Below, in pieces: positions 13,706 through 43,073 of a DNA stretch of 64,000 bases. Origin of the DNA: an uncultured delta proteobacterium (lineage in GTDB: Bacteria > Myxococcota_A > Polyangia > Polyangiales > Polyangiaceae); the NCBI GenBank assembly GCA_963716725.1, contig CAVQUB010000005.1:160001-224000 (forward strand). The letters run 5' to 3'. The notes below the pieces were generated by a model. It did not search any database, was not told the origin of the DNA, and saw only the letters and a list, made by a program, of their open reading frames with translations. Position 1 is the first letter of the stretch, and each line of letters starts with the position of its first letter. A program made the position numbers and the translations under genes.

Positions 13706-14503
13706 GTGAAGCACGGAGCCGACCAACCCGCGGAAATATCGGAGGCTCCGCCGACGGACGAGCCGCCGCTCCGGCCCCCGGGCGAACCCCCCACGCGGCG
13801 GAATGGCCGCCCAGCGTGGCTGGTCCCGGTGGGCATCGCGCTCGGGACGAGCGCCGTCGTCACCGGGCTTTCTTACGGAATGCCCGACAAGTACGCGGCT
13901 ACCGCGGTGGGTCTGGGCTTCCTGGCCGCCACCTATTGGGTCGCGCTGCGCCGGGACCATCCCCTGGCCCCCGACCACTACGGGCTCGCGCTCGGCGGGC
14001 TGCTCGACCCCGAGCCGATCTCTCCGAGACGGGTCGCGGGTGACACCGCTCGCGCCTTGGCGTGGGCCGTTGGCCTCGCGCTGGCCATCTTTCCCCTCTT
14101 CTGGTTCGCCTACCGGTGGTGGTGGAAACCCCGACACGCGTTCGAATCCGGCAGCCTGCCGTCCCTCGGGGACGACGTGCTCGGTCAGCTCCTGGTGATC
14201 GCGCTGCCCGAAGAGGCCTTCTACCGCGGCTACCTCCAGACCGCCCTCGACGACGCGTTGAAGCCCCGCATCAAGATCCTTGGAGCCACGGTCGGCTGGG
14301 GGCTCTTGATCTCGAGCGTGCTGTTTGCGCTCGGGCACTTTGCCACCGAAGCGCACCCGAACCGTCTGGCGGTGTTCTTCCCGGCGCTCGCCTTCGGTTG
14401 GTTGCGTGCGCGCACCGGTGGCATCGGTGCGGGCATCGTGTTCCACGCGCTCTGCAACCTGTTCGCGGCGTACCTGGCGCGGAGTTATGGGATGGGGCGT
14501 TAG
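13706..14503 (+). CDS. CPBP (Abi/CAAX) family glutamic intramembrane protease, myxosortase-like
   Basis: LPEEAFYRG, FALGH, FHALCN motifs; multiple TM helices. Confidence 0.85.
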   Translation: MKHGADQPAEISEAPPTDEPPLRPPGEPPTRRNGRPAWLVPVGIALGTSAVVTGLSYGMPDKYAATAVGLGFLAATYWVALRRDHPLAPDHYGLALGGLLDPEPISPRRVAGDTARALAWAVGLALAIFPLFWFAYRWWWKPRHAFESGSLPSLGDDVLGQLLVIALPEEAFYRGYLQTALDDALKPRIKILGATVGWGLLISSVLFALGHFATEAHPNRLAVFFPALAFGWLRARTGGIGAGIVFHALCNLFAAYLARSYGMGR

Positions 14504-14760
14504 CCCCCACCCTGCCCCGTCTTCGCGCGCTCCTCGAACGCCGCCTCGAGGTGCATCAGCATCAGCTTGTCCTTCGGCCGCGACAGATGTCGCTTGACCT
14601 CGACCAGCTTCTCGAGCGTCAGCACACGGACGGGATACTCCCCTACCTCGAGCACTTCGCTGCCTGGGAGGAGATCGACGTATTCCCCGCCCCTGTCGAT
14701 TGATCCAAGCACGTCGAATCTGAGATTCCCGGCCTGAAGAAGCTGGTTGCCCGCACCACG
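14500..14760 (-). pseudogene. 3' fragment of a nucleotidyltransferase-like gene
   Basis: FDVLGSID...VRVLTLEKLVEVKRHLSRPKD resembles the C-terminal half of small AbiEii/DUF6036-like NTases; no GG/DxD N-terminal half. Confidence 0.5.
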
Positions 14761-15026
14761 GGAGAGCTGTCTTGCAGGGCAGCCGCGATTTCGTTTCTTC
14801 ATGTGCCCCTAGGCTGTTTGGGCTCGCGGTCTGTTGGGTCCACGATCGGCGGCTGTCACGCCATCTGCATCGCGAGGGCATTTGGAACCGCCGCCCGCAA
14901 CCGGCGCGCAGCCGCCGGTCCCGCCTTTCGTGACGGCGAGAGTCCCGACGGAGTGGGCTAGCCATGAATGCTCGGACCACCTCCGTGGGGAGTCCCAAGC
15001 GTCCGCTCCTTCGCTTCAATCGCCAA

Positions 15027-15359
15027 TCAGAGCGCGATGCGGATCAGATCACTTCCGTGGAATCCCAGAATGAAAATCAACTCGGACGGCAGCTCCTCCG
15101 AACGCCGAGGAGCGACCTTTCGACGGGGATACTGCGTGAGATAGCCTTTGACGTCCTCCACGGCGGCAGTGACCTTATCCACAATCGCGTCGTGCTCAAC
15201 CACTGGTGAACCAAAATCACCAGCCGTCCAGTACCAACCTGGCGGTAGTGCACGGGTGGCTTCGCCATCGGGACCCGGAACCCAGACTCCGTCAGGAAAG
15301 TGATAGAGCGGGCGCAGCTCCGGGGCTTCTTTGACCCACCGAACAGCCACAATGCGCAC
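15027..15359 (-). CDS. Hypothetical protein or gene fragment
   Basis: 110-aa ORF downstream of the HTH gene with protein-like composition; no recognised motif. Confidence 0.3.
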   Translation of the reverse strand: MRIVAVRWVKEAPELRPLYHFPDGVWVPGPDGEATRALPPGWYWTAGDFGSPVVEHDAIVDKVTAAVEDVKGYLTQYPRRKVAPRRSEELPSELIFILGFHGSDLIRIAL

Positions 15360-15395
15360 CGGACCTGTGACCAGAAGCGGCGGGTGGCGTCAGGG

Positions 15396-15896
15396 TCACC
15401 TCGTCCACTCCATCGCGATGTCCGTCTCCGACAGGTCCAGCGCGTTCGCGATCTTGTACAGGGTCGAGCGCCGAGGGATCGAAGGCGAGTTCAGCATCCG
15501 ACTGAGCGACGGCTGCGGGATCCCGCTCTTCTGAGCCACTGCGGAGACGCCGCCGTGCTTGTCGATGAGCTGCCGGAGCTTCGCCTTCTCTGCCATCACG
15601 CGCTGGGCAACGTCATCGAGCTGGTCGTACTTGATGTACGGCTTGTGCAAGGGCTCCTGCGGCGCCTCGGCGTAGTCGTCGATCGATTCATGCAGATCCG
15701 CGATGATCTCGTCCCGCTCTGCGGGGTCGCAGGCTGAGTCCATCCAGAGCGCCATCAAGTCATGGACACCTTGGTCCGCGCGGCCGAGTTCGGCAGCCTT
15801 CACGATGAACTCGTGATCGAGCCCCGCGTTCTTCATCTCGACCATGATCGAGGCGAGCGCCAACGCCTGCTCGGCTGAAGTCTTGAAGGGGATCAT
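15396..15896 (-). CDS. XRE-type HTH protein (putative antitoxin)
   Basis: C-terminal GGVSAVAQKSGIPQPSLSRML...TLYKIANALDL; ATGA overlap with the upstream gene. Confidence 0.8.
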   Translation of the reverse strand: MIPFKTSAEQALALASIMVEMKNAGLDHEFIVKAAELGRADQGVHDLMALWMDSACDPAERDEIIADLHESIDDYAEAPQEPLHKPYIKYDQLDDVAQRVMAEKAKLRQLIDKHGGVSAVAQKSGIPQPSLSRMLNSPSIPRRSTLYKIANALDLSETDIAMEWTR

Positions 15897-16339
15897 AGGG
15901 TGCCTCGGTAGATGTAACGACCCAGGGAAATGAGGTTCATGCGCGTCTTGAACACCGCCATCTTTCGCTGATCGACGGCATCGCTCGACTTCACGTACGC
16001 CTCGCACAGGAACGCGGTCTGCTGCCCGGCCATGACGGGCAACCGCAGTTGCACCTGACCCGAACCCAAGTTGTGCCACTTCATCTTGTACCCGCTGGGA
16101 AGGACCCTGCTCCCCTGCTTGGCGGGTCCCCAGAAAGTCGGGATGGCGAACTTCGGCTCCGGCGATGGGATCCCCGTTCGCAGCAGCTCAACGTCCGGTC
16201 GGAGCAAGGTCCAGTAGTCTTTGTCCGCGAAGACATTGGCGTGCTTTAGCCTGAGGTACGAGTCCAACGCCCACTCCGTGATAACGACGGTCCACGGCTG
16301 GGCCGATATTCCGGCTGGAGCGGAGGGGGGCTGGCTCAT
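15893..16339 (-). CDS. Hypothetical protein, divergent RelE/HigB-like toxin candidate
   Basis: WTVVITEWAL start; YKMKW, QLRLPV, FLCEAYVK strand pattern; coupled to the HTH gene. Confidence 0.5.
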   Translation of the reverse strand: MSQPPSAPAGISAQPWTVVITEWALDSYLRLKHANVFADKDYWTLLRPDVELLRTGIPSPEPKFAIPTFWGPAKQGSRVLPSGYKMKWHNLGSGQVQLRLPVMAGQQTAFLCEAYVKSSDAVDQRKMAVFKTRMNLISLGRYIYRGTL

Positions 16340-16375
16340 ATAACATTTCATAACACTCGCTCTGGGACAGCGCAA
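16340..16375 (-). promoter_or_regulatory. Putative sigma70 leaderless promoter with TGTTAT direct repeats
   Basis: Minus strand TTGCGC-17 nt-TATGAA, then ATGTTAT and the ATG; AT-rich patch in GC-rich DNA. Confidence 0.45.
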
Positions 16376-17087
16376 GTCTCCAAGGGTTTTTACGGGTTCG
16401 TTGGATGCGAGCGCCTCAGGAAATCTGGGTTTGTTTGCTTGCGAGTTCGTCCGATTCCAGCGCGGGGACCGGCGGGCCCGCGAGTGGGGCAGCGAGTAGC
16501 GGTGGCAGCGCCGGCACGGGAGCGAACAACAGCAGCGGCAGAGCCGCAGCCGCAGGGAACACCGCGCCGTGCCGGGGGCCCGACAACCTCGGAGCGACGC
16601 TAGGTGCGTGTTGCAAGTCCCCGCAGCCGCCGCCGGCAGCGCGGCGACCTCCGTCTCGATTCACGAGCTCACGGGCCAAACGCCACCGGTGTTCGTCGGA
16701 GCGACCCAGGTGGGCCCGGCGTTCACGGTCGCGGCGAATCAGCCCCTCGCCGACGCCATCAGGCGCGTAGGAAAATCCAGCCTCGCTCGGTGGGTCGCGT
16801 CGTCGAGCTTCCGAGAGTCGGCGGATCGCACCACCGATGCACGAGGCTCGCAGCGTGACCACGATTCCACCCGGCGAGGTTGGGTTTTCACCACCCACAA
16901 CGGTCGCCCAACAGCCTTCCGGAACCGCACCGGCCCACCTCACGTCCGAGATCCCCTTGGGCCTTGCCGGCTGCGCTGCCGCGCCGCGTTTCGTCCAAGA
17001 ACCTTCGCGTGACTGGCTTCGCTCGCTCGGCTCCCTCGCAAAGGCTCGGGACCTCACGCGCTCGAGTCACGCCGGAAGCTACTGCTT

Positions 17088-17125
17088 ATGCGATCTTGTT
17101 CGATCCTGCCGGGGCGCGCCGCTGG
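17088..17125. repeat. 38-bp inverted repeat, left arm
   Basis: ATGCGATCTTGTTCGATCCTGCCGGGGCGCGCCGCTGG; 37/38 match to the reverse complement of 19180-19217. Confidence 0.85.
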
Positions 17126-17248
17126 TCCGCTACGGGAAAGGTCGACCCCTCTTCTTCGCGGACCCGCGTGCGGCGACCGAGGTCCGCGCGAAGTGTCGCT
17201 TCGGCTCGAGGATGTCGGGCGACCCGAGATTCGTGTTCCTCGTGGTTT

Positions 17249-17761
17249 TCAGTCCCTCGCCGCCGCGACGACGTCGCTCGCGGTAGCTTCGGCCGGGGCG
17301 ACCCAACGCACCTTGCCGGTCGCCTCGAGGATGACGGTCCCGGGCAGCTTGTCGATCGCGAGCTCGCGACGAAGGACGTCGCCACGGTCGACCAAGAACG
17401 GTGATTCGGCGCCCCACCTCTTCAAAGCGGCGGCGGCGTCCGCATCGCTCTCACCGTCGGAGAGCACGGCCACGAGCACGAGCATCGCACCGCTCTCGCG
17501 TAGCGCAGCCTTGTGGGCGAGGAGGCCGGGCACCTTCTTCGCGCACGGCTCGCAGGTCGGGGCGAAGGCGTCCACGATCGTCACCCGAGTGTTCGGCTGC
17601 GGGACCGTGACGAGGGCGCCTTCGTTCGAGGGGAGCGCGAACGTGGTGGTCGTGCCGAGAGCGGGGCTCTGCGCCGAGGAGGGGGCCGATCCGGCGCCCC
17701 CACTGCATGCGGAAAAGACGAGAGGAACGACGAGCGCGACGAAGGAACGGCTCATTCGCAT
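17249..17761 (-). CDS. TlpA/thioredoxin-like lipoprotein
   Basis: Lipobox FSA-C; VDAFAPTCEPC; LPGTVILEATGKVRW. Confidence 0.8.
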   Translation of the reverse strand: MRMSRSFVALVVPLVFSACSGGAGSAPSSAQSPALGTTTTFALPSNEGALVTVPQPNTRVTIVDAFAPTCEPCAKKVPGLLAHKAALRESGAMLVLVAVLSDGESDADAAAALKRWGAESPFLVDRGDVLRRELAIDKLPGTVILEATGKVRWVAPAEATASDVVAAARD

Positions 17762-17793
17762 GGCCCACTGGGGGGTGCCGCCACAGTGGCCGC

Positions 17794-19104
17794 TCATTTC
17801 AGCTCGGCATCGGCGCGCTTGCGCACGGCCTCGGAGAGGTCGGTGCGAGGAGCACCCCCGAGGCTCTTCGCGGCCTCCTCTTTGCCCGACTTGCTCCAGA
17901 TTAGGTCCTGCTCCGAATACACCGCGATGAAGCCCTGCTCCGTCGCGACCTTGCCGGCGATGGCGGTGATCTTGTCTCCCAGCTCCTTCATGCGGCGCCT
18001 CTCCAAGTCCCCCACCTCCCGCTGGTACTTGATGTAGAGCGCCTGGAGGTCCGCCGTCTCGCGCTGGTGCTGAGCCCGCTTCTCTTTCGTCTTGTCCGCG
18101 CCGAGCGCCGCCTCCTGCTTTTCGAGGTCCGCGGCGCGATTCTTGAGCTCGGCCTGCTTCTTGTTGAGCTCGTTCTGCCGCTGGTCGAAGACGGTCTTCA
18201 GCTCGGCTTTGGCGCGCTTTCCCACGGCCGATTCGAGAATAACGTTGTCCAGGTCGACCCGCGCGATGCGGTCCGTCGCCACACATCGACCTTCCTCGAA
18301 CTGGCTCCCCGGGGGGCAGTCGACTCGGGCTCCCGCCGCGCGGCCCTCGATCCGCGTCAGCCCGATGCGCAGGGGCACGCTGCAGCCGACCTCCCGCGTG
18401 CCCTCTCGCTGCGCCTTCTCGCAAGCGTCGGCGTTGCCCTCGCGGGCGAGCCGCTCGGCGGTTCGGTCCTGACTGCCCCCCGCGCCGACTCCAAAGATGC
18501 TCGCCGTTGCGGACAGCGCCTCGCTCTCGCCTGCCGCCATCGCGAAGCCACCGAGGTAGACCTTGCTCACGACGTGGGTCGCGCGGTCGCAGTCCCCGTC
18601 GAGCTGGTCGGCAGGAAAGGTCTTCATCACCGGAGTCGCGAGCAGGCCGGCGAGCATGTAGTCGGTGCGGAGCGCGCGTCCGCCTCCGACCTTCCCGCCC
18701 AGCCTCGCAGCGCCGATGGGAAGCTCGGCGAACAAGTCGCGTTGGCTCTTCGCCGTCTTCGTTTCGGTCGCGCTGTACGGTGAGAACTTGTACTCGGCGC
18801 CCTTTCCCACGCAGTTCAGGACCTCTAGCTCGACGTTGCAGCCCTCGGCCTTGTAGCGGACCCCGACGACCCCGGTCTCTTGGAGCGCCTTCAGGTTCAG
18901 GCGTGAACCCGAGTCCCAACCCATCAGATCCGGCTCGGTCGGCGGACGGATGGCGCTGCACTGCGTGCCCTCGAACGCCTCGCCCGTCTTGGTCGGCTCG
19001 AGCAGATCCGGTGTCGTGATGCTCGACGTGCCGCACGCCGCGACAGCGAACGCCGAAACGACGAACCTCGAAGCGACCAGCCCCTGCAAGCGTGCGTTCG
19101 ACAT
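17794..19104 (-). CDS. Lipoprotein with C-terminal OmpH/Skp-like domain
   Basis: Lipobox VAA-C; Cys-containing N-domain; IARVDLDNVILESAVGKRAKAEL, coiled coil, TDLSEAV. Confidence 0.75.
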   Translation of the reverse strand: MSNARLQGLVASRFVVSAFAVAACGTSSITTPDLLEPTKTGEAFEGTQCSAIRPPTEPDLMGWDSGSRLNLKALQETGVVGVRYKAEGCNVELEVLNCVGKGAEYKFSPYSATETKTAKSQRDLFAELPIGAARLGGKVGGGRALRTDYMLAGLLATPVMKTFPADQLDGDCDRATHVVSKVYLGGFAMAAGESEALSATASIFGVGAGGSQDRTAERLAREGNADACEKAQREGTREVGCSVPLRIGLTRIEGRAAGARVDCPPGSQFEEGRCVATDRIARVDLDNVILESAVGKRAKAELKTVFDQRQNELNKKQAELKNRAADLEKQEAALGADKTKEKRAQHQRETADLQALYIKYQREVGDLERRRMKELGDKITAIAGKVATEQGFIAVYSEQDLIWSKSGKEEAAKSLGGAPRTDLSEAVRKRADAELK

Positions 19105-19179
19105 GAACGCGGATCATGCCACGGCGTGGGCGTGGCTTCCGAAAACCTTTCACGCCCACCCACGTCGTCGGCCGCCGCG

Positions 19180-19217
19180 CCAGCGGCGCGCCCCGGCACG
19201 ATCGAACAAGATCGCAT
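19180..19217. repeat. 38-bp inverted repeat, right arm
   Basis: CCAGCGGCGCGCCCCGGCACGATCGAACAAGATCGCAT. Confidence 0.85.
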
Positions 19218-19500
19218 GGGCAGCTATGTAAAACGCTTCCCGGCGTTGCAACGCTCCTGCGACTACTTCACCGTATTCGCCGAGGCAAGGCGCGCCACGC
19301 GTCCTGGCACTCTTGATCGGAAGTCGGCGAGCCGAGCGCGGCCTTCGCCGGCCGGTGCGAGAGTCAGGGGCAGGGGCGAGGGCGATGACCGAGGCGGTGG
19401 CCGCGCTCGGCTCGCCGACCAGGGCTAGGGCCAGGGGGCGGAAGCCAGGTCTGCTGACCGGAGCGGGGCTGTCAAAGAACGAGGCGGCGCGAGGCCTGGG

Positions 19501-20190
19501 TTACGACTGGGCGGCGACGGGCGCGAGCCGGTGGCGGCGCAGGGCGAGAAGGTGCTCGTCGGTGGCGGTGACGGCGGCGAGCAGAATGTCGCGCATCACG
19601 TTGCGCCAAGGCCGAGTGCTTTGCTCGTCAGAGCGCAGGGTTACGCCGCGCTAGAGCGTGAGCAAGGTGTAGGCAATGCGGCGCAACACGATCACGACGA
19701 CGGTTGCTCGTGGATTCTGCTCGATCCATGGATGGTCGCCCCTCGCCAGGGACTTCCAAGGGTCGTCCTCTGCGAAAGCCGTGTCGAGGATTTGGTGGGA
19801 GGTCTCGACACCCCAGTGCCGACGCACGACGAGCAACCATTGCGCATGCGTCAGCCGAGAGCGCGGCAAGCTCGAAACGAAGTAGCGGTTTTCAACGTGA
19901 TGCAGTTGCCCTTCTGGTCGAGCGTCTCGACCTCGACACGGAGCACGGTGCGCAGGTGGTCCCAGCCTTCTGGCGCGGCGCCGGCTTCATCGATGTAGAG
20001 CCGACGCACCACGGTGTTGCCGTGGTCGAAGTCGCTGCTGGTTGCTACTGCTTGTGCCGGCGCACGTTCACCCAACCAGCGCACGGCCTCTTCGTACAGT
20101 GTCGGCTGTGTGCTCTTGATGGCCATCAGGTAGTGAAGCCCGCGGTCACGTGCGGCCTGGGCGTTTTGCTTCGAGCAAGCGCCGGTATCG
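19501..20190 (-). pseudogene. ISAs1-family transposase remnant
   Basis: YLMAIKSTQPTL and VRRHWGVE...LDTAFAED...LRRIAY in different frames; internal stop at 19651; 5' part absent. Confidence 0.8.
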
Positions 20191-20257
20191 TCCCTCGTCA
20201 GCTCACGATCAGTCACATCTTTTGATCCGGTTTCGTCCTCCTGTGCGTCCGGAGAGC

Positions 20258-20600
20258 ATGGCAAGAGCGAAGGCGAAGGTGCGAGTGTCTGTGGCGAAGG
20301 AGTTCGAGGGGGGTGAGCTTGGGGATCGGCGGCTGAACGCCCGACTGGAGCGGATCGCGCGAGCAGCGGACGCGAACCCGAGCGATACCTTTCCCGACAT
20401 GATGGGCTCTGGGGCAGAACTCGAAGGTTTCTACCGCTTTGTCCGGAACGAAAAGGTGAGCTTCGACGAGGTGCTCCGGCCGCACGTCAGCGCCACAGTG
20501 CGTCGGGTTGCGGAGCACGACGAGGTGATCGTGATGCACGACACGACGGAGTTTCGGTTCTTGGGCGACAAGCGCCAGGGGCTCGGCAGGGTCGGCACCC
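20258..20600 (+). pseudogene. IS4-family (Tn5/IS50-like) transposase, N-terminal remnant
   Basis: EFEGGELGDRRLNARL, FYRFVRN, VMHDTTE; similarity ends after GLGRVG. Confidence 0.85.
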
Positions 20601-20908
20601 CATTTGCACCCAGTCGTGGGTGTTCTGCAACCGCTCGTCGATCTTCGTCGCTAGGCGCCGACGCTGTGGCCGACGTCGTCGTCTGGATCACGCTGCGACC
20701 GAAGTGAGCGCTGGCTAGTATCGCGCCGGTGAGGATCTGACCGGTTCACGCGGCCAGCTCGAGACTCGATCAGCCACGCGAGCGAGGCGCCGAAAAGGCG
20801 CGACAGCGACTCGAGAGCATTGGCGGATCCTGACGACCGTCCAGACCGGACTTGGAGTCGCGCCCGGCATGGGCGCAGAACAGAAGGCGAGAACGCGTGA
20901 GCTCGGAG

Positions 20909-21652
20909 CTACTTGTAGTTCTGCACCGCCCAGTTACCTGCTGAGCTGAAACCACACGCCACTTTCGTGAACCATTTTGCGCTCATGTTCACATAGTGGC
21001 CGCACACGTCGCCGGTTTGGGAGCCGTAGAAGTCACAGCCTGTACAGCCGCCCGGGCCGGTGCACTGGTCGCACCCGGCGCAGCCGGCCTTGTCCTTCTC
21101 GTTCCACATGCTGTTGAGGCAGCCGGTGATCCCCCCGCCCAGGCATTCGTTCTGACCGGAACCGCCATCACAGCCGAACTTCTTGGAGCTCCACGCGCCG
21201 TGCGCTTTGCCCGTCTTGTTGTCGTCCGTGGCTTGGAGGTCAGCGCAGTTTTCGCCGTCGGTCCAGCGCTGCAGCGGCTGCAGGCTCTTGGTCGCGCGCA
21301 ATTGGTTGATGGTATCCACGCAGGCCTGCCGTTGCGCTGCAAATGGGTCGCCGCCGGTCGTGCCGCCGCTCGACGCGCCGCCAGTCGATGCGCCGCCAGT
21401 CGATGCGCCGCCAGTCGATGCGCCGCCAGTCGATGCGCCGCCAGTCGATGCGCCGCCAGTCGATGCGCCGCCAGTCGATGCGCCGCCAGTCGCCGCGCCG
21501 CCAGTCGATGCGCCGCCAGTCGATGCGCCGCCAGTCGATGCGCCGCCAGTGCCCGAGGGCCCTGCGTCTTCGAACGACAGGTTGTCGTATCCGAGCACGT
21601 TGCTGCACGACAGGAGCGCTGGCAGCGCAAGCAACATCAAGCCACGCAACAT
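20909..21652 (-). CDS. Lipoprotein with (GGAST)n linker and CAP/SCP-like domain
   Basis: Lipobox LLS-C; CVDTINQLRA, AHG, GHYVNM, KVACG. Confidence 0.75.
   Translation of the reverse strand: MLRGLMLLALPALLSCSNVLGYDNLSFEDAGPSGTGGASTGGASTGGASTGGAATGGASTGGASTGGASTGGASTGGASTGGASTGGASTGGASSGGTTGGDPFAAQRQACVDTINQLRATKSLQPLQRWTDGENCADLQATDDNKTGKAHGAWSSKKFGCDGGSGQNECLGGGITGCLNSMWNEKDKAGCAGCDQCTGPGGCTGCDFYGSQTGDVCGHYVNMSAKWFTKVACGFSSAGNWAVQNYK
21370..21550. repeat. 15-bp coding tandem repeat, about 12 units
   Basis: (GCCGCCAGTCGATGC)n encoding GGAST, with single GGAAT and GGASS variants. Confidence 0.95.
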
Positions 21653-21765
21653 GAGCTCATAATGCGCGGTCTTGGCGTCCTCGTCGAGGCGCTGCCGCCT
21701 GACGGGCCCACTCTGACAAGAGCGCGCCCAAGACATCGATGATGCGCGCGGGAAACCGCTCCTTC

Positions 21766-23163: not shown

Positions 23164-23304
23164 GGCTCTGTGATGCCAGCGCCGGGGCCTTCGGACCAAC
23201 GAAATGATTCGCACGTATCGTTCGAAACAGCAGAACGATTTCAGGGCCCCTTCAGCGATTGCTGGGACAAACGAGAGGCCTGCGCGTCGCGCGCGGGGTC
23301 GTCC

Positions 23305-23406
23305 GCCCCAATCCGTCGGGCCGTGTGCTTCCCGGCGCGCGTGTCTCTCTGGCTGCGTGCGCTGTTCGCGGCGTACCTGGCACGGAGCTACGGGTTCGCG
23401 CGTTGA
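23305..23406 (+). pseudogene. Degenerate duplicate of the CPBP protease 3' end
   Basis: AVCFPARVSLWLRA-LFAAYLARSYGFAR* vs AVFFPALAFGWLRA...LFAAYLARSYGMGR*; 20 identical nt at 23362 and 14459. Confidence 0.8.
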
Positions 23407-25043: not shown

Positions 25044-25156
25044 CGCGGGCGGCGTGCCATGTGTGCCACTGTGCCGCCAAAGCGCACACAAACCAGGAAA
25101 ATCCTGGGAATTTGTCAGGGGCACATCCCGGCACACTGGTTGCTCTAGGTCCCCAC

Positions 25157-25843: not shown

Positions 25844-25849
25844 CGAAGA

Positions 25850-25974
25850 GTGAACGCGTCTGCCCCCACCTGTCCGCGCTGCGCCGAGCCGCTCGGAATT
25901 GCGCAGGCGCCGGACATGCAGGGGGGATGGTCCACGAGTGGCTGGACGCGAGCGTTCGCAGCCGGGGTTTCTAG
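25850..25974 (+). pseudogene. 5' remnant of a zf-TFIIB-type zinc-ribbon gene
   Basis: GTG NASAPTCPRCAEPL..., with WLD in a shifted frame. Confidence 0.4.
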
Positions 25975-25992
25975 CGGCTGGCCCGGACGCGC

Positions 25993-31179: not shown

Positions 31180-31197
31180 CTGCGCTACCCTGGACTC

Positions 31198-31704: not shown

Positions 31705-31785
31705 CCAGGCACTGGGCCGGAGGCTCTCGTCGACCACCAAACCATGCAATGAGCGCGGGGCGCGCCCTTTCAACTTACTATCGAA

Positions 31786-32340: not shown

Positions 32341-32454
32341 CGTGGGGCGTTTCCTCTGGCCCGACCCCATCGCAAGCCACGTGCCAGCCCCGAGATCGCT
32401 GGATTTGCGCTGTTTCCTCGATGATCGTGCGTCCACGAGGACGCACGGGGCGTG

Positions 32455-35122: not shown

Positions 35123-35202
35123 GGCGGCACCATACGCTTTTGCCCTGGGAATAGGGTGGACAAGGTCCCCCCTCCGGCTATGCTTCCGAGGGGAGGGAAA
35201 TC

Positions 35203-35574
35203 ATGCTTCGATGGATCTCGCTCGTGCTCTGCGCCGGCGCGTTCGCCTGCGCCAGCGACTCGCAGGAAGCCGCCGACACGGACTCCGGATTGAACGGCAA
35301 CGTGACGCCCTGCGTGCACACCACCACGGACTCGGTCGCGCGGAGGGACTCCGACACCTTGCCGACCGGTGCGTGCACCCCGGATCCGGACGAGCCGGAG
35401 TGCAAGCTCGTCCTCCGAGATTGCCCGTGTGTGAACGTGCAGTCGCCGCGGAGCCTTTACACCTGCACCTGCACCGGCGGCAGCTGGTCCTGCACGCTCA
35501 CCTCTCAAGACTTGGGCGCGTGTCCCGCTCCGGACTCGGGTTCTTGCGAGCTGGGCGACGCCGGGGGCGGCTGA
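35203..35574 (+). CDS. Small Cys-rich lipoprotein
   Basis: RBS, lipobox AFA-C. Confidence 0.7.
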   Translation: MLRWISLVLCAGAFACASDSQEAADTDSGLNGNVTPCVHTTTDSVARRDSDTLPTGACTPDPDEPECKLVLRDCPCVNVQSPRSLYTCTCTGGSWSCTLTSQDLGACPAPDSGSCELGDAGGG

Positions 35575-35604
35575 GGCCCAATCCGCTACGTTGGCTGGGT
35601 GAGG

Positions 35605-35907
35605 CTACAGTCCGAGAGCAAAGCGCAGCGCATCGTCGAGTTGCTGCAGCTTCGACGCGCTGAGACTGCCTCCTCGCTCGATCAAGTCCTCCTTGGGAAC
35701 CGTCACCAGCCAATCACAATTGACCACACCCATCCGGGGCAGACCCTCCGCCCGCCCGATTTTGACCTCCACTGCGAAGCCGCGAATGGTCGTGGTCACC
35801 GGTGCGACAATCACCAGCGCGCGGACCGCATAGGCTTCGTGGCGGGAAACGAGCACCACCGGGCGTCGCTTGTCCAGGCGTGCCCACCAGACTTCTCCGC
35901 GCCTCAC
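35605..35907 (-). CDS. mazF: PemK/MazF family toxin
   Basis: RRGEVWW, KRRPVVLVS, VAPVTT, LDDALRFALGL. Confidence 0.92.
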   Translation of the reverse strand: MRRGEVWWARLDKRRPVVLVSRHEAYAVRALVIVAPVTTTIRGFAVEVKIGRAEGLPRMGVVNCDWLVTVPKEDLIERGGSLSASKLQQLDDALRFALGL

Positions 35908-36170
35908 GCCTCGTCCCAAGGCAGTTGGGCGATCGATCGCCGCGCGAGCTTCCGAGCTTCGGTCACCTGCCGCGGGCTCTCCGGTACGGCCCGGTAGGCC
36001 TCGACGTACCGCTCGATCTCTCGCTCACGGGCCTCGATCTGCAGCAATTGTCGCAGGGCGCGTCCGAGCAGGGCGCTGCGCGTCTCCCCAGTCGCCTTCC
36101 TGAGCCGCTCGGCCTGCGCGAGAAGGTCACCGTCCAGGCTGACTCCGATCTTTTCGGCCTTCGCGCTCAC
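35904..36170 (-). CDS. RHH/CopG antitoxin (MazE-like)
   Basis: KIGVSLDGDLLAQAE...TRSALL; GTGA overlap with mazF. Confidence 0.85.
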   Translation of the reverse strand: MSAKAEKIGVSLDGDLLAQAERLRKATGETRSALLGRALRQLLQIEAREREIERYVEAYRAVPESPRQVTEARKLARRSIAQLPWDEA

Positions 36171-36184
36171 GGTATGAATTTGTC

Positions 36185-36358
36185 CTACCGCGGGACCTTC
36201 GTCAAGTTGGACCCGGCCCCCGTCGCAGGCATCGCAGGCATCGCAGGCATCACCGGCGTCACCGCTTTCAGCGGCGCTCTTCGCCACGCCGGCAGCCAGA
36301 GCCGGAGCTCGTAGCCGGTCCGGCTCACCGGGATCTCTGCGTTCACCGGCGACACCCC
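36185..36358 (-). pseudogene. Short duplicate of the PMT-like gene 3' end with an alternative tail
   Basis: 36242-36358 matches about 41757-41871 (SRTGYELRLWLPAWRR), then (PAM)n from a 9-bp repeat and TAG at 36187-36185. Confidence 0.85.
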
Positions 36359-36414
36359 TCGAGTGCCCGAATGGCCGTTCCACCGATCACGTGCACCTCC
36401 GGGAAAGCCCGGCG

Positions 36415-36955
36415 CTAGGAGCCGGGAAAAAGAAAGCCATCATTCGCAAACGGCGGCGTTGCGCGCCGTTCAACAGGGGCCAGGGGACAGGCAACAGGCA
36501 ACAGGCAATGGTCCGGACGCGTGGAACGCCCGCACAGCGGCGCATCCCGCGGCTCACGCGGGCCTGCGCGGCGCGATGGCTTTGGCGCTTCGGCACGCGC
36601 AGTGCGTGCCGAAGCGCCCAGGATAGCTGCCAGCTCGTTGGCTTCGCCGAGTAGCGCCTCGGGCACTGGCCAGCCGCACCGCTCGATCAGGGCGAGCCAG
36701 TAGGCTGTTTCGCGCATCTCTTTGGCGGCGATGCTCGCCTTGTGGGCAAAGTCGTCCCGACTCTCGGCGGCACGTGCCTCCTCGTAATTGGCCCCGGCAC
36801 TGGTCGCGCAGCGGACGAGCTGCATGGCGATGTGACGACCGGCGTGACTTCTCGGGAGCCGGGCCGCGAGCAGAAGCGCAGCGGCGCCGAGCTCGAGCAA
36901 GCGTTCAGCAATGTCGCTCCCGCGCCGTAGGGACTGCCCGTTGCCGGTGGCCTGA
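36415..36955 (-). CDS. Four-helix-bundle (23S rRNA IVP-like) protein, native 5' end apparently lost
   Basis: QLVRCATSAGANYEEA...DFAHK...KEMRETAYWL...EANELAAIL. Confidence 0.85.
36471..36511. repeat. Degenerate heptamer array
   Basis: CAGGGGC CAGGGGA CAGGCAA CAGGCAA CAGGCAA TGG. Confidence 0.8.
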
Positions 36956-37066
36956 CTGATGCGCGGCGTCACCGCCGCGCGCGACGAGTTTCGGCTCATC
37001 GCGCTGACGCACAACCTGCTGAAGCTGTTCCGCTCCCGGAGCCGTCCGGCAATGCTCGCGCCATGA
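36956..37066 (+). pseudogene. IS1182/IS5-like transposase C-terminal remnant
   Basis: Own translation LMRGVTAARDEFRLIALTHNLLKLFR* matches the LRGxxxxxxExxLxxxxHNLxK terminus. Confidence 0.7.
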
Positions 37067-37220
37067 CCAACGGCGGCCGTTCCAACGCTCATGCGCTCGC
37101 TCCGCAGTCGAGCGGCCGTTCGAGCGACTCAGTCGCCCGTAGCCTGGCACCGCGACCGACGGAGGCTCGCTTGCGGACGGGAGCTCGACCCCTGACGGTG
37201 GGGGAGACGCAGGCGGTGGC

Positions 37221-37793
37221 GTGTGTGGCACCGGGTTGCTCGCCGAGGTGGCCGTGCCCGGTGCGAGCGATCCGTGGCTCGCGGGGATGCCCGACGGTGC
37301 GACCGCGTCTTCGGGCGACGTCGCTCCAGACCAATCGCCGGCGCTCGCCACAGCCAGCGTCTCGGGCTGCACTCTGACCTTCTCCGTGACGGGCGGGGTG
37401 CACTTCGATCCGGGCTGTCCGCCGGCCTGCACCGGGCCCGACGGAATGGTCGGTGGCGGGGCCCATGCAGCCGGCGCCGAGAACGGGATCTCCTCCACGG
37501 TCGCGCCCTGGAACGCGCTCATGGGTGTGTTCGTGGGCAGCGACCCGCCGAACCTCACCGCTCCGCCCGACTCGCTGGACTTCCTCTCGGGGGCCCGCGA
37601 CTTCGCGCACCTCGAGCCTGAGCTGAAGCAGGTATTCTTCATCGGCGACGGCCTCACCGGGGAAGGGCTCGGAGCCACCCAGACGTTCCTGGTTCCCGAG
37701 GGCGCGACGCGACTCTACCTGGGCACCATGGACGGCTCGGGTTGGTTCAACAACAGCGGCTCCTTCGACGTGCGGGTCTACAGCGCGCCGTGA
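37221..37793 (+). CDS. Secreted-type beta domain, probably 5'-truncated
   Basis: ALMGVF, QVFFIGDG, VPEGATRLYLG, NNSGSF; no signal peptide; follows the IS remnant. Confidence 0.55.
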   Translation: MCGTGLLAEVAVPGASDPWLAGMPDGATASSGDVAPDQSPALATASVSGCTLTFSVTGGVHFDPGCPPACTGPDGMVGGGAHAAGAENGISSTVAPWNALMGVFVGSDPPNLTAPPDSLDFLSGARDFAHLEPELKQVFFIGDGLTGEGLGATQTFLVPEGATRLYLGTMDGSGWFNNSGSFDVRVYSAP

Positions 37794-38103
37794 GCGCAGG
37801 TGCTGCGACGGCGCTCCGGGCTCGACGGTCGACCGCGTCACGGACGTTGGGCGAGCCTGAGCCGGTCTCGTAGCGCGTGGTACATCGGGACGGTCCTCGA
37901 TAGATCGATTTCCGCCCGTGCAGGCACCCAGGTCCGGATTAGGCTCCACCGGTTGAACTGCTGGCGCGAGCCCAACACGGTTGCTTCGGCGCACTCGGTG
38001 ACCTTGCTCGGGCCCACTCGACAATGTCGTGCCCGCCCGCCTTTCCGAGCCCGCGGACATCCCAGGTGGCCTGGCGCCTAGTGGCTGGCTATAGTTTGCA
38101 CGC

Positions 38104-38685
38104 GTGACCGAACCGGCGAAGAAGCTCGCTACGTATCAAGACGTGCTTGCCGCGCCGCCTCATATGATCGCCGAGCTCATCGACGGGGAGTTGCGACTTC
38201 AGCCCCGGCCGGCCAAGCCCCACGCTGCCGCCGCAAGCGCGCTCGGTGAGGAGCTGGGCCCACCTTTCAAGCGCGGCCGTGGTGGACCTGGTGGCTGGGT
38301 GATCCTCGACGAGCCCGAACTGCATTTGGCCGCCGACGTTCTCGTTCCCGATCTGGGAGGTTGGCTCGTCGAACGCTTGCCTGCGCTCATCGACGACGAG
38401 CCGTTCTTTACGCTGACTCCGGATTGGGTCTGTGAGGTGCTGAGCCCGCGCACCGCGAAGTACGATCGAACCGACAAGCTGCGAATCTACGCTCGAGAGC
38501 AGGTGCCCTGGGTCTGGTTCGTCGATCCTCTGCAGCGAACGCTCGAAGTCCTGCGGCTCGAGGCGGGCAAGTGGACCGTGCTGGATACTTGGCGCGACGA
38601 CGCCACGGTACGCGCCCGACCCTTCGATGCAATCGAGCTAGAACTCGCAGCCCTCTGGCATCGGGTCGTTCTCCGAGAGCCTTGA
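38104..38685 (+). CDS. Uma2 (DUF820) family endonuclease-like protein
   Basis: AELIDGEL, LVPDL, PDWVCEVLSP, D...K...Y, WFVDP. Confidence 0.93.
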   Translation: MTEPAKKLATYQDVLAAPPHMIAELIDGELRLQPRPAKPHAAAASALGEELGPPFKRGRGGPGGWVILDEPELHLAADVLVPDLGGWLVERLPALIDDEPFFTLTPDWVCEVLSPRTAKYDRTDKLRIYAREQVPWVWFVDPLQRTLEVLRLEAGKWTVLDTWRDDATVRARPFDAIELELAALWHRVVLREP

Positions 38686-38855
38686 ACCGGACGTCGAGAT
38701 CCGGCACTACGGTTTGCTCGCACCGTGTCGCGTGTGGCAGCCAAAAACCCGTTCGAGCGGATTGTCTTGAGTACGGCCGGCGCATTGGCGCTCCTGAAGG
38801 ATACCCGGTCGGCTCGTTCGACTCGCCGCTGACAAGCATGTCCGGCCGGGCGACG

Positions 38856-39341
38856 GACAAGGCTGATGATTGCTTCGTGTTCGAGGTCGAGCCGGACCGA
38901 CAGCCCGCGGCGGACGCCTGGGGCTTCTGCCTGCCCAAGGCCATCTGCGCGGCGAGCGCCGCAACGCTGCCCGGCGGCCGGCGCTGCGAATAGGGGGAGT
39001 TTCCCCGTTAGGATGGGGCTCCATCACACTGACCTCAACGACCCGCAGGAAGCCGCGCAGGCGTCACCGGCGTCACCGCCTTCAGCGGCGCTCTTCGCCA
39101 CGCCGGCAGCCAGAGCCGGAGCTCGTAGCCGGTCCGGCTCACCGCGATCTCGGCGCTCACCGGCGACACCCACCACGAGCAGATCGTGATCGCGCCGACG
39201 CCGACGAGCCCGAGGCGCTTTCGGTCTGCGAGCGCCCGCGCGATCTTGCCCGCGACCAGCGCGACGCCGAAGCCATACGCAGGCAGATAGTGATAGATGT
39301 ACGAGTCGCGGCGCGAGACGATCCAGGGCACCAGCGGGAGC
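38856..39341. repeat. About 485-bp direct repeat of 41557-42042 (3' ends of the lipoprotein and PMT-like genes)
   Basis: Near-identical sequence at offset 2701, including both stop codons and the intergenic spacer. Confidence 0.95.
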
Positions 39342-39464
39342 AAGCCTCCGAGGGCCGCGATCATCGACAGACTAGACCTGGACGGACCAGACCGCGGCTT
39401 GACCCCGATGGCGACCTGGGGATAGTCTCACAACAGAAGAGCAGTCGTGCGCAGGAGGGGGAGC

Positions 39465-40845
39465 ATGAGCAACTCGCAACTCGCAACTCGCAACTCGCGG
39501 TTCGACCTCGGCGCACCGAGCGCTGCGTTCGAGTCCTGCGCGAGCCGTCCAGCTGATCGTTGCGGCGGGCTTCGCGCTCGCGTGTGATTCCGAGGAGGTC
39601 GAGATCCGCGCCAATCAGCAGGTCGTTTGGGCGTCGCGCCTGGGCGGTGATCGGTTGGTGCGCGATTCGCAGCTCGGGTTGAGCCAGTACAAGCAGCCAC
39701 CGTATTTGCTCACCGTCGATGTGGACTCCGACGCGCAGCGGACGGAGTTGTTGTTCTTCCCTTTCGATCCACAGACTTCTTTTGTCCCACTCTCGAAATC
39801 GGGAGGCAGCGCGCCGGTGGCGCCGAAGGGAAACGCCGTGGGCTTCCTCCACGCTGGTGGCGTCGCGACGTATCAGGTCGGCTCCAGCCTGGCGTTGATG
39901 AATGGCCTGCAGCCGCAGAGCATTCGGGGGCACTATCAGCGCAGGCATGGCGAGTGCGAGCTCGAGGTCTCGTGGAAGACGCTGCTCGACGCCGTGTTGG
40001 CTGGGGTGGATGACAGCTCCGGCGAAGGAGAGTGCAACGCGTTGTTCTGTCCGGACTACGACGTCCACTACACGAAGCGGGTTGCCACCAGCTACCTGCG
40101 GCAGGTCGGCACCCGCGGCCAGGGGGGCTTCGGGCTCTTCTTCGAAGGCGAGACCGAGGTCGATTCACCCGTCATCGATGACCTCTCCTTCTACGGCAAG
40201 GCCGCCTACGATCTTCGGTTGTCCGAAGCGGGACTTCCGGAGCTCGTCGTCGCAGCGGGACCGTTCTCGGGCACATGGAATTGCTCGTCTTCACCCTTCA
40301 CTACGTGTCCGCGCGAAGACGTCGAAGATGGCGTCATCGAAGGAATGGCGGAGGCAACGGGGAAGCTGAACGGCATCTTCGAGGAGTGTCTGTTTGCCCC
40401 GATCGAGGCGGACTGCGAGACGGCCGTGGATTGTGCGGACGATATTCAGGTGGTTTTCTTGGCGAGCGGCGCGCGCCAGGAGGCTGAACAACGGGGGATG
40501 GCCCCTGCAATCGCGAACAAGTTCGAGTCCGCTTTGCTCGACTCCGCCAATTGGCGCTGCGCGCCGGTGACGAACACCTGCGCCGCGTTGACCGGGGCCG
40601 ACCCGACTCCAGAGCCCGCCTGCCAGCTCCGGCTGGCGGCAACGGACATCGTCTCGATGCCGGATCGCTTTGGACTGGTGTGGTACCCGGAGGATCCCGG
40701 CGCCGCGCCGGTGACAGCGGCTCAGGGGTTGTATCTGGGCCTCAGCTTTCTGGGCCAAACCGACGAACTCTTGCAGCTCTGCTCGCCGCGACCCGCGACT
40801 CGAGCGAGGTCGTTCGTTCGTGTGGTGGACAACAGCTCGCACTGA
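39465..40845 (+). pseudogene. Lipoprotein gene out of frame at a heptamer repeat (candidate phase-variable, OFF state)
   Basis: AGGAGGGG RBS plus ATG 39465 in one frame; signal VQLIVAAGFALA-C and the long ORF in the +1 frame. Confidence 0.65.
39469..39496 (+). repeat. (GCAACTC)4 perfect tandem repeat
   Basis: Read directly from the sequence. Confidence 0.95.
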
Positions 40846-40860
40846 GGCGCGGGGAGCCGA

Positions 40861-41694
40861 ATGTTCTCGCCCCGAATCAAGCTCGCGCGACCCACCCTTG
40901 GCACCGTGTTGCGGGGGGCGCTCGTGTTCAGCCTGCTCGGCTGTGGCGGGCAAGTCGACGCCGACGGCGGAGCCACGGGTGGCGGCGGCATCGGCGGCGT
41001 GGGTGGAACCGGCGGGACCGGCGCCGCGGGTGGAACCGGCGCGACCGGTGGCGCTGGTGGATCCGGCTGGACGGAGTGTTCGACTCCGGATTGGGCTGTG
41101 TGCGGCACACCCGAGTGTCCAGAAGGACGGCCTGGGTGTTCCCTCTGCTTCCCGGCAAAGGGCCCGGGGCTCTTCGGGATCTGCGCCGAGACGTTTCCTA
41201 CCGGCGCAGTCCCGTGGAAGGCAGCGGATGGGAAGATCTTCGTTGGCCTCTTCCCGACCATTGATGAGAAGCCGGGGAACATCCTCGAGGCCCCCTTCAG
41301 CGCCGGGGTCTTCCTCGCAGCCCACGGCCAGGCCGCTCGGGTGGCCTACGCGGACCGCGGCGTGTGGACGGGCGATCCTCTCCCGCTCCCAGACACCTGC
41401 CCGTCGATCGCCGACGTGACGAGTTGCGGTGGTAACTGCGGAGGTTGTCCGAGCGGGCAGATCTGCACGGGCCGGTCGCCGCTCCACCCTTACGGGATCT
41501 GCGTACCCACGGACTCGTATTGCTCCTTGAACCCCGATGATCCCGGGCTGCCGTGCGACAAGGCTGATGATTGCTTCGTGTTCAAGGTCGAGCCGGACCG
41601 ACAGCCCGCGGCGGACGCCTGGGGCTTCTGCCTGCCCAAGGCCATCTGCGCGGCGAGCGCCGCAAAGCTGCCCGGCGGCGGACGCTGCGAATAG
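40861..41694 (+). CDS. Gly-linker, Cys-rich lipoprotein
   Basis: Lipobox LLG-C; GGTGG linker; many Cys. Confidence 0.75.
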   Translation: MFSPRIKLARPTLGTVLRGALVFSLLGCGGQVDADGGATGGGGIGGVGGTGGTGAAGGTGATGGAGGSGWTECSTPDWAVCGTPECPEGRPGCSLCFPAKGPGLFGICAETFPTGAVPWKAADGKIFVGLFPTIDEKPGNILEAPFSAGVFLAAHGQAARVAYADRGVWTGDPLPLPDTCPSIADVTSCGGNCGGCPSGQICTGRSPLHPYGICVPTDSYCSLNPDDPGLPCDKADDCFVFKVEPDRQPAADAWGFCLPKAICAASAAKLPGGGRCE

Positions 41695-41735
41695 GGAAAG
41701 TTTCCCCGGTAGGATGGGGCTCCATCACACTGACC

Positions 41736-43073
41736 TCAACGACCCGCAGGAAGCCGCGCAGGCGTCACCGGCGTCACCGCCTTCAGCGGCGCTCTTCGCC
41801 ACGCCGGCAGCCAGAGCCGGAGCTCGTAGCCGGTCCGGCTCACCGCGATCTCGGCGCTCACCGGCGACACCCACCACGAGCAGATCGTGATCGCGCCGAC
41901 GCCGACGAGCCCGAGGCGCTTTCGGTCTGCGAGCGCCCGCGCGATCTTGCCCGCGATCAGCGCGACGCCGAAGCCATACGCAGGCAGATAGTGATAGATG
42001 TACGAGTCGCGGCGCGAGACGATCCAGGGCACGACCGGGAGCGCCCAGAGCAGCAGGCACCAGAGCTCCGCCGAGTCGAGGCTGCCGATGGTCCCGAGGG
42101 GCGTCGGGCGTGCCCGAAGCACGGCGCGTGCGCGCTGGGAGAGCGCGGAGAGCAGCCCAGCCAGCGCTACCAACACCGACAGGCTCGCGCCCCACCAGAG
42201 CAGCGGGTTGCCCATCGAGGTCATCGACCGCACGACGCCGTCCAGCTCCGAGTAGCGCATCGCGATGGGCTTCAGCGGCAGCAGCCAGGTGTACCAGCGC
42301 GAGATCAACGCGTGCTTTCCGTCCGTGAGTTTGGCGTGGTGCTCGTAGAGGTCGCGCGTCGCGGCGACGACGTCGGCCACGCCGTGCGGCGCGTGCTGGA
42401 GCATGAGCCCGTGGCGGTAGACCAAAAAGTAGGTGAGCGGAGTCAGCGCCAGCAACAGCACCGACCAGCGCGGCGCTCGTCCGACCAGCGTCGCGATCAA
42501 GAGTGGGACGACCATCACCACGGCGCTGAATTTCACCGAGCAGCCCAGCCCGAGCAGCACCGCGCCGACGGCGACGCGTTGCGCGCTCTTGGCCCGGATC
42601 GCGACGCAGGCAGCGGCCAAGACCAAGGTCGCGAGCACGCCGTCGAGCAGCGCCGTGCGCGAGTACGCGATGAAGAAACCATCGCCGGCCAGGAAGGCGG
42701 CGGCGATCAGCCCGGCGCGCCAGTTGCGAAACAGGCGAGCCGCGAGCAAACCCCCCAGCGCGATGTTGGCGATGCCGCTGGCGAGCGCCGACGCACGCCA
42801 TGCGAACGAGACGTCGCCGAACCAGTGGATGGCCTGCGCGATCAACAACTTGCCGAGCGGTGGGTGATCGTTCCAGTCCTTGGCGCCGACCAGATAGTTC
42901 TGAGCGGTGCGCACGAAGTGATGCTCGTCCCACGCGAGTCCGACGGGCTCGCCGAGTCGCTGCACGCGCAGCCAGATCCCGATCGCGACGGCGATCAGAC
43001 ACCAGCCCACCAACAGCAAATCCTGTCGCTTCGACGCCGACACCCGAGGCGCCTCTCTACCAGAAGCCGCCAA
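41736..43073 (-). CDS. PMT-family (GT-C) lipid-carrier-dependent glycosyltransferase, copy 1
   Basis: WDE, DHPPLGKLL, SRTALLD, GNPLLWW, YIYHYLP; many TM helices. Confidence 0.88.
   Translation of the reverse strand: MAASGREAPRVSASKRQDLLLVGWCLIAVAIGIWLRVQRLGEPVGLAWDEHHFVRTAQNYLVGAKDWNDHPPLGKLLIAQAIHWFGDVSFAWRASALASGIANIALGGLLAARLFRNWRAGLIAAAFLAGDGFFIAYSRTALLDGVLATLVLAAACVAIRAKSAQRVAVGAVLLGLGCSVKFSAVVMVVPLLIATLVGRAPRWSVLLLALTPLTYFLVYRHGLMLQHAPHGVADVVAATRDLYEHHAKLTDGKHALISRWYTWLLPLKPIAMRYSELDGVVRSMTSMGNPLLWWGASLSVLVALAGLLSALSQRARAVLRARPTPLGTIGSLDSAELWCLLLWALPVVPWIVSRRDSYIYHYLPAYGFGVALIAGKIARALADRKRLGLVGVGAITICSWWVSPVSAEIAVSRTGYELRLWLPAWRRAPLKAVTPVTPARLPAGR

Follow-up and report, generated by a model that had tools for sequence, protein, structure and literature searches.

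In an uncultured soil/water myxobacterium of the Polyangiaceae, the 3' ends of 37 genes are found again downstream on the same strand, as orphan tails separated from the resident gene by other DNA. The starting point is a window of 64,000 nt, by which we mean the whole stretch analysed (positions 160001-224000 of contig C5, CAVQUB010000005.1, assembly GCA_963716725.1). The source genome is a metagenome-assembled genome (MAG) of 7.9 Mb in 35 contigs with about 68% GC; the named records nearest to its PdxJ are MAGs of uncultured Polyangiaceae/Myxococcales. At the sigma and PMT sites described below, the DNA bounded by the tails is inserted relative to related genomes, the orphans differ from resident tails in the manner of alleles, and many of them begin where a hairpin-forming repeat, here called E, ends. 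We interpret these loci, with modest confidence, as tail-anchored cassette arrays in which foreign DNA carrying its own version of a gene tail has been joined to the resident gene by homology on one side.

Three genes of the window show this arrangement: a CPBP protease gene, an extracytoplasmic function (ECF) sigma factor gene and a PMT-like glycosyltransferase gene. The first-pass annotation had listed same-strand downstream copies of all three 3' ends, and every one was recovered by self-blastn of the window and repeat finding (43-486 nt, 86-98% identity). Gene identities were assigned with Pfam on the 96 open reading frames (ORFs) of the window. At the sigma locus, 31782-31855 matches 27078-27151 over 74 nt (90.5%, E-value 7e-22); the stop codon is retained and the mismatches number 0, 2 and 5 at codon positions 1, 2 and 3. 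The PMT repeat is longer than originally given: 41557-42042 and 38856-39341 align without gaps over 486 nt at 97.9%, and the homology continues for 179 nt past the stop codon, where it takes in the 3' end of convergent ORF 40861-41694. A 116-nt core (41757-41872) matches both 39056-39171 and 36242-36357 (95.7%). This third copy begins to diverge 21 nt before the stop and has its own stop at 36185. A fourth PMT tail of 91 nt (98%) lies on another contig (C1:138547-138637). The CPBP repeat is shorter (14459-14501 against 23362-23404, 43 nt, 86%, E-value 1e-6) with a weaker second match between 14356-14411 and 23307-23362 (75%). Alignment with relatives shows that this orphan is decayed, with an internal deletion of about 40 nt; the position of the stop is retained, as TAG versus TGA.

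Comparison with five genomes of the same genus (G001 to G005) indicates what has been added. The core order CPBP / nadC-birA-X / sigma-yjeF-pdxJ / PMT is common to all five. Gene X lies only 0-12 nt from the sigma gene in G001, G002 and G005, so that window positions 25844-31785 are an insertion; similarly, 35137-41735 is an insertion because pdxJ lies 67-100 nt from the PMT gene in G002 and G003. The ORF 40861-41694 was considered as the native neighbour of the PMT gene and rejected, being dissimilar to the ORF found at the same place in G001 or G005. The CPBP gene itself is conserved at 78-84% in the five relatives, and the gap between it and nadC is an insertion hotspot in each species compared: its length varies across species (3, 11.9, 14 and 59.5 kb), it is filled with other DNA, and the cargo of the window has no counterpart between CPBP and nadC in the relatives. 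Orphan CPBP tails of 40-393 nt are also present in G002, G003 and G005, each with its own. The 194 ORFs scanned in the relatives' gaps include toxin-antitoxin genes, proteases and kinases, with insertion sequence (IS) elements in G003; they were pre-filtered on third-position GC content, which may have overlooked atypical genes, and five border-crossing ORFs were removed and one partly restored.

The cargo of the window had been described as accessory, and Pfam bears this out, with HTH antitoxin-like, MazF/RHH, RHH plus AbiEii-like, Uma2, Tn5-type transposase fragment and 23S-IVP genes. The sigma block differs from the toxin-antitoxin/Uma2 type, as it carries a TetR regulator and a Ser/Thr kinase. 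Several pieces of the CPBP cargo are multi-copy in the genome, and a homologue of the RHH/AbiEii-like cargo of the sigma site is located inside the CPBP island of G003.

That three cases within one window reflect a genome-wide process had been suggested at the outset, and a systematic search agrees. Self-comparison by blastn of 251 overlapping 60-kb segments of the genome gave 1524 high-scoring segment pairs in 488 gene-partner groups. For genes of 300 nt or more, partial copies no further than 30 kb away were sorted by the gene end reached and by whether the partner lay inside a longer same-strand gene. Matches that overran the gene end by more than 60 nt, mostly intergenic repeats, were then dropped, which left 45 of the 68 records in the main class. 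Tails in direct orientation downstream account for these 45 records (37 genes), compared with 5 (4 genes) for direct upstream tails, 9 (7 genes) for direct upstream heads, 3 (3 genes) for direct downstream heads and a single inverted tail. The 3' excess is thus 37 genes versus at most 7 in any 5'-end or upstream class, and many orphans classed as internal are likewise close to the 3' end. Main-class orphans have a median length of 81 nt (38-572), a median distance of 4.3 kb and a median identity of 89.9% (67-100%); six genes have two or three orphans each. Targets include ftsZ, purC, a ferredoxin-like gene, an adenylate cyclase and an L,D-transpeptidase, and the cassettes carry HigB/HTH, MqsRA, AbiEii, HEPN/NTase, Uma2, DUF559 and RCC1-repeat proteins among others. 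A local tandem or segmental duplication of a gene end with the DNA behind it, in which one copy later had its content lost or replaced, would also leave an orphan 3' fragment downstream when its breakpoint falls inside the gene. It predicts equal numbers of 5' and 3' orphans, in conflict with the observed excess. Moreover the DNA on either side of the orphans shares nothing else, and homology stops abruptly even where the copies are 97.9% identical. We regard this explanation as very improbable.

The nature of the differences between resident and orphan tails is informative. Mismatches number 130, 121 and 277 at codon positions 1, 2 and 3 (about 1700 columns each), the substitution matrix is symmetric, and the AT content of the orphans is not above that of the resident tails. 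The orphan has an A at 107 of 585 mismatches; adenines are not over-represented, and since they are not singled out the signature of a diversity-generating retroelement can be ruled out. At the CPBP locus of G003 the protein allele typical of the genus is carried by one orphan, and a different allele by both the resident tail and another orphan; the tails are mosaics of these two protein-level alleles. Because the mismatches are mostly at third positions and symmetric, the tails resemble alleles of other lineages more than decaying duplicates. This was the origin in relatives that the first-pass annotation had proposed, and both the mismatch pattern and the mosaic CPBP tails are in line with it.

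The divergence also bears on an alternative in which the tail is copied locally. Insertion at staggered breaks, with gap filling that copies the resident tail over a long and variable length, would leave two copies that drift apart afterwards. Direct repeats of 38-572 nt do flank inserts that lack a mobility gene, as in the restriction-modification genes described in PMC2853133, at least in the part of that paper available to us; two tail pairs are 100% identical, and in some small cases 30-240 nt separate the copies. In the window the repeats exceed 30 bp (43-486 nt), and at the sigma and PMT sites the relatives have a single tail next to the flank. Drift from a local copy is, however, a poor fit to mismatches concentrated at codon position 3, symmetric and without a shift to AT in the orphans, and to G003 orphans carrying another protein-level allele than the resident tail. 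In one array it is the older, distal copy that is identical to the resident tail. Target duplication is therefore judged unlikely.

A G-rich motif precedes many orphan tails to the base and corresponds to the 3' end of repeat family E. Members of E are 75-220 nt long and fall into at least 8 subfamilies (86 nhmmer matches, 58 copies with an intact right end). All subfamilies have the same predicted fold, a long GC-rich hairpin and a second hairpin followed by a conserved tail, approximately GAG(G/T)(G/T)GGGGCA...A. Compensatory changes are seen in 8 of 38 stem pairs in an alignment of 18 sequences from three species. The right end of E forms the 5' boundary of 15 of the 45 tail orphans; among the 12 head orphans this is the case for none, and among the 46 internal fragments for 2. 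At about 25 distinct junctions, some on other contigs, the DNA flanking E matches the 3' part of a gene; next to the PMT tail on C1, E is located exactly at the boundary used by the window copy 36242-36357. In the CPBP hotspots a CPBP tail comes directly after each of the 6 clear copies of E (two in G002, four in G003) and likewise after one weak E-like copy in G005. Within the CPBP gene the junctions concerned occupy about four different positions, and the PMT orphan tails start at two different positions. Cargo genes show no rule of orientation relative to E (40 opposite, 18 same). The best-conserved subfamily has, by blastn, 12 copies in the source genome and 5 in G001, with two weak partial matches among 39 other sampled genera of the family; within the set of genomes searched, E is restricted to this genus. 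An exact-pattern scan of species genomes, with an overly strict pattern, gave 3 matches in two other MAGs. The only copy in the window belongs to subfamily B, with nine genome copies at 79-91% and a predicted hairpin of -67 kcal/mol; no recognisable gene tail follows it, and its flank has no match in the genome.

The link with E argues for a dedicated cassette end over a purely general route. The first-pass annotation had favoured the latter. Its genome-wide scope holds, but about a third of the orphan tails abut E while the three sites of the window are without it. E is consequently either not required or lost at the window sites, where all four orphan tails are without E. The most successful cassette seen is a gene for DUF559 (a Vsr-like nuclease) together with E, with at least 7 occurrences behind at least three different genes. 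One possible, if tentative, reading is that E-ended cassettes constitute a new integron-like gene-capture system in which the gene tail would serve for docking, an attC-like E would end the cassette and an unrecognised enzyme would do the joining. That enzyme is possibly a cassette-borne PD-(D/E)xK nuclease or an HUH-type protein. Uma2 or DUF559 nucleases are present in some cassettes (window 38104-38685, C12:102291, C34:142433 and C34:144322) and many cassettes are without them. If such a system exists, even the essential genes ftsZ and purC host its arrays unbroken.

Several other roles for E were considered and set aside. E does not look like a miniature inverted-repeat element of a larger parent, as split arms 0.3-4 kb apart gave chance matches only. 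Its G-rich tail was examined as a ribosome-binding site: an in-frame start within 3 codons follows at 7 of 25 unique junctions (null 0.18; 15 of 32 before eight IS21 copies were collapsed by hand), which was judged non-significant. A scaffold for TnpB guide RNA was rejected, with no PF07282 match in the genome. So was an oriT, with no relaxase of PF03432, PF08751 or PF03389 (the genome is 84% complete, and absence is unproven). E has no Rfam match, the only Rfam matches being group II introns, and the only two RVT_1 matches of the genome are both such introns (C1 and C13). No earlier description of E came to light, although no literature search was aimed at it and Rfam alone bears on the point. 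The C1 intron (C1:284400-286400; D1-D4, a reverse transcriptase/maturase ORF, D5-D6) stops only some bases short of an E copy that itself precedes an orphan ftsZ tail, at the left edge of that copy; the second intron copy is on C13 near 95 kb. E is also unlike the constant right end of an IS91-like element, and the junction flanks follow no tetranucleotide rule of the GTTC/CTTG kind expected for one-ended rolling-circle transposition. The genome has 14 IS91-type Y2 matches, and one IS91-like family (C13:110100-114500 and C8:414600-417300) combines one constant right end with many left ends and includes tandem partial copies spaced 1180 nt. There are two Y1 matches in the genome, one of which is a gene of the window (about 5516-5960, minus strand) resembling IS200 and RAYT (REP-associated tyrosine transposase; REP, repetitive extragenic palindrome). 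It lies within 66-nt inverted repeats (5451-5516 and 6175-6240, 85%), each holding two small GC hairpins, a layout that resembles REP-associated transposases. By eye these flanking repeats are unlike E, and E as the REP of this gene was rejected.

No integrase, tRNA or shared core had been seen in the window initially, and none was found here; the hotspots of the five relatives are integrase-free in cis too. Neither the 96 window ORFs nor the 194 gap ORFs include a tyrosine or serine recombinase (PF00589, resolvase or recombinase families), contig C5 has no PF00589 match anywhere, and there is no tRNA or tmRNA within the window. The youngest cassette (C12:67604-70928) has no recognisable recombinase. 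These results are relevant to a further alternative, site-specific integration by a tyrosine or serine recombinase acting in trans, with integrase-less elements piling up in the manner of cis-mobilizable elements (CIMEs) and E as an attP arm. The topology of gene, new tail, cargo and old tail is that of integration at the 3' ends of genes or tRNAs, the genome has 19 PF00589 matches elsewhere (none near the arrays examined), and E is conserved exactly at the junction. A trans-acting integrase is harder to reconcile with the lack of a recombinase in or beside the gaps examined in six genomes, with junction positions that vary within a gene (about four for CPBP, two for PMT), and with at least 25 different targets that share no core. 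We give it only a small chance.

An assembly artefact, in which strain variants of one locus were joined in series, was also considered. The MAG is 84% complete with 3.9% contamination, and the repeats differ by 2-14%, as strains might. Logan unitigs of run X2 bridge the junction 39341/39342, those of X1 and X2 bridge 41556/41557, and run X5, from a different study, holds exact pieces of the stretch. X1 and X2 are not independent support because they are possibly the source samples. The junction between E and the PMT tail on C1 appears as a loose end at 36357 in three runs, and no contig in the reads spans the whole 6.4 kb stretch. A single X5 joint entry (36475 to 40981) was set aside because it involves a Gly-rich stretch of low complexity. 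Independently assembled genomes of other species show this architecture as well, among them G002 (5 contigs) and G003 (on a 1.02-Mb contig), and an artefact is thus extremely unlikely. The first-pass annotation had named unspanned junctions, no excess of 3' ends and an integrase/att system as findings that would tell against it; none of these is observed, and the unitigs bridge two of the junctions.

The tail-anchored account would proceed as follows. Foreign DNA starting with its own copy of the last 40-500 nt of the target gene would join the gene seamlessly by homologous pairing, so that the gene remains intact and uses the incoming tail from then on. The far end of the incoming DNA would be joined at a break or nick within the resident tail, through a non-homologous or E-directed joint, and the native tail would be displaced downstream as a silent orphan. 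Repeated rounds would generate arrays of the form tail-cargo-tail-cargo-tail. As each unit would be flanked by homology (gene body and orphan tail), it could move from strain to strain through ordinary recombination, or through loop-out with Campbell-type re-entry. E may act in cis as a cassette end, its last base forming the joint to the orphan tail, and would be cut or joined by an enzyme whose gene lies elsewhere. The observations establish the architecture, the insertions, the 3' excess, the allele-like divergence and the association of E with orphan tails, whereas the sequence of events, the homology on one side and a role of E as an enzyme site are inferred from them.

Several observations weigh against this account. 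No joining enzyme was found among the families searched (TnpB, three relaxase families, reverse transcriptases, IS91-type), and no E adjoins the four orphan tails of the window. The two tail pairs that are 100% identical also fit duplication of the resident tail at insertion. Of the orphans at C12:103053, the distal one matches the resident tail completely and the proximal one at 94%, an order that requires gene conversion or exchange as an explanation. At the sigma and PMT sites, extra cargo separates the last orphan from the native flank. The reads contain no polymorphic empty site or alternative joint. Finally, the source is an 84% complete MAG with 3.9% contamination, and its 6597 genes were called with a custom codon-likelihood caller.

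The coordinates of the main features are collected in Table 1. A few other observations concern single loci. In the CPBP cargo, 44-nt inverted repeats (93%, 17082-17125 and 19180-19223) bracket the redoxin and OmpH-like genes (17249-19104), and the Pro-rich, extensin-like ORF at 21183-21662 contains twelve 15-nt tandem units (21313-21580). The third PMT copy includes three tandem copies of the 9-nt unit GATGCCTGC (about 36190-36245), of which the resident gene has a single similar stretch. A second PMT-like gene (45768-47129) lies on the opposite strand, with about 70% DNA identity between 42631-42988 and 46252-45895. In an IS-rich accessory region of C1, a 141-codon ORF (C1:141387-141812) corresponds to the GyrB C-terminal domain only and is 54% identical to gyrB on C2.

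Table 1. Features of the window and of the DUF559 loci; positions are those of the window unless a contig of the source genome is named
Feature	Position	Strand	Basis and remarks
CPBP (Rce1-like) protease gene	13559-14503	+	Pfam PF02517, E-value 3e-17
CPBP resident tail copied downstream	about 14356-14503	+	
CPBP hotspot cargo	14504-23289	.	Pfam
HTH_3 antitoxin-like gene	15396-16079	-	Pfam
E, subfamily B (only copy in window)	16761-16900	+	nhmmer E-value 5.5e-39; co-oriented with CPBP
Redoxin gene	17249-17797	-	Pfam
OmpH-like gene	17794-19104	-	Pfam
Tn5-type transposase fragment	20150-20707	+	Pfam
Pro-rich ORF with 15-nt repeat	21183-21662	+	
Decayed CPBP orphan tail	23307-23404	+	ends 11 nt before nadC start
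Core block nadC-birA-X	23416-25843	+	Pfam; syntenic in all five relatives
RHH (NikA/TacA-like) and weak AbiEii/DUF2204-like pair	26044-27062	+	Pfam; between sigma orphan and gene X
Orphan ECF sigma tail with stop codon	27078-27151	-	74 nt, 90.5%
Sigma cargo: Gly-rich ORF, TetR regulator, Ser/Thr kinase, unknown ORF	27152-31781	-	Pfam
ECF sigma factor gene	31786-32436	-	Pfam; resident tail 31782-31855
MazF toxin and RHH antitoxin	35605-36170	-	Pfam; cargo closest to pdxJ
Third PMT tail copy	36242-36357	-	frame runs on to stop at 36185
PMT cargo block	36415-38685	.	Pfam
23S-rRNA-IVP four-helix protein	36415-37092	-	Pfam
ORF	37221-37793	+	
Uma2 nuclease	38104-38685	+	Pfam; 95% copy at C5:263700
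Second PMT tail copy	38856-39341	-	486 nt, 97.9%, ungapped; 330 nt of coding sequence with stop, then 179 nt past the stop
Cargo between PMT tail copies (ORFs 39655-40845, 40861-41694)	39342-41556	+	no Pfam family
PMT-like glycosyltransferase gene	41736-43073	-	Pfam PF16192, PF02366, PF13231; resident repeat 41557-42042
DUF559 and E unit	C34:142433-145003		
DUF559 and E unit	C5:376840-377245		
DUF559 and E unit	C13:81739-86800		

Most bacterial gene-gain hotspots are without recognisable mobility genes, and the route by which their cargo enters is an open question. In the present genome the displaced gene tail is a scar that can be read in dozens of parallel cases, about one third of which also have E. 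The route is testable because the scar predicts a foreign allele, shows the joints and provides E, as DNA or RNA, as bait for the enzyme. If general, this route would account for the addition of cargo behind essential or operon-internal genes with no polar damage.

Parts of this architecture are known from other systems. Homology-facilitated illegitimate recombination in naturally transformable bacteria combines one homologous anchor with one illegitimate joint. It is usually described as losing recipient DNA, whereas here the duplicated anchor is retained. Accretion of integrative and conjugative elements and CIMEs, as well as tycheposon islands, leaves partial gene-end copies between cargo through serial insertions at the end of a gene or tRNA. 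Such accretion uses a site-specific integrase and a fixed core, while no integrase was found here and the junctions vary within the gene. Integron cassettes are small, with one or two genes, many of them toxin-antitoxin, and end in a structured, lineage-specific attC of about 60-140 nt whose fold is more conserved than its sequence. The present cassettes resemble them in being small, often toxin-antitoxin, and terminated by a structured lineage-specific repeat. They differ in that there is no IntI/attI platform and no PF00589 match near the arrays examined, and in that each array is anchored to a different ordinary gene whose tail it repeats. By-eye inspection of aligned and folded E found no RYYYAAC/GTTRRRY (R''/R') boxes at the stem base.

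Two described kinds come closest to the present arrangement, mobile ORFs of fungal mitochondria and the insertion with long and variable target duplication of the Kobayashi group, for which Nobusato et al. (2000) is cited in PMC2853133. In the available part of the account of Furuta et al. (2010, PMC2853133), direct repeats of more than 30 bp (46-423 bp in the tables) flank genes without other mobility gene; the repeat is single in the empty genome and some repeats overlap the 3' end of a gene. Restriction-modification genes make up the cargo in that case and the repeats are near-identical, whereas here they look diverged and allele-like, with a structured repeat at many junctions; that part of PMC2853133 reports no 3'-end rule, arrays or conserved end element. 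In fungal mitochondria, according to the portion of Beaudet et al. (2013, PMC3630166) at hand, mobile ORFs produce the order gene body, in-frame foreign C-terminal part, mobile ORF and displaced native C-terminal part. The inserted tail differs from the native one at the DNA level and far less at the protein level, and a case in Allomyces atp6 is cited (PMC3630166). Each of the fungal elements described in that portion of PMC3630166 has a LAGLIDADG or GIY-YIG endonuclease, while the cargo here is mostly toxin-antitoxin or unknown, with Uma2 or DUF559 in some cassettes. What the two have in common, from the same portion of PMC3630166, is that a foreign gene end is inserted and the native end is left downstream.

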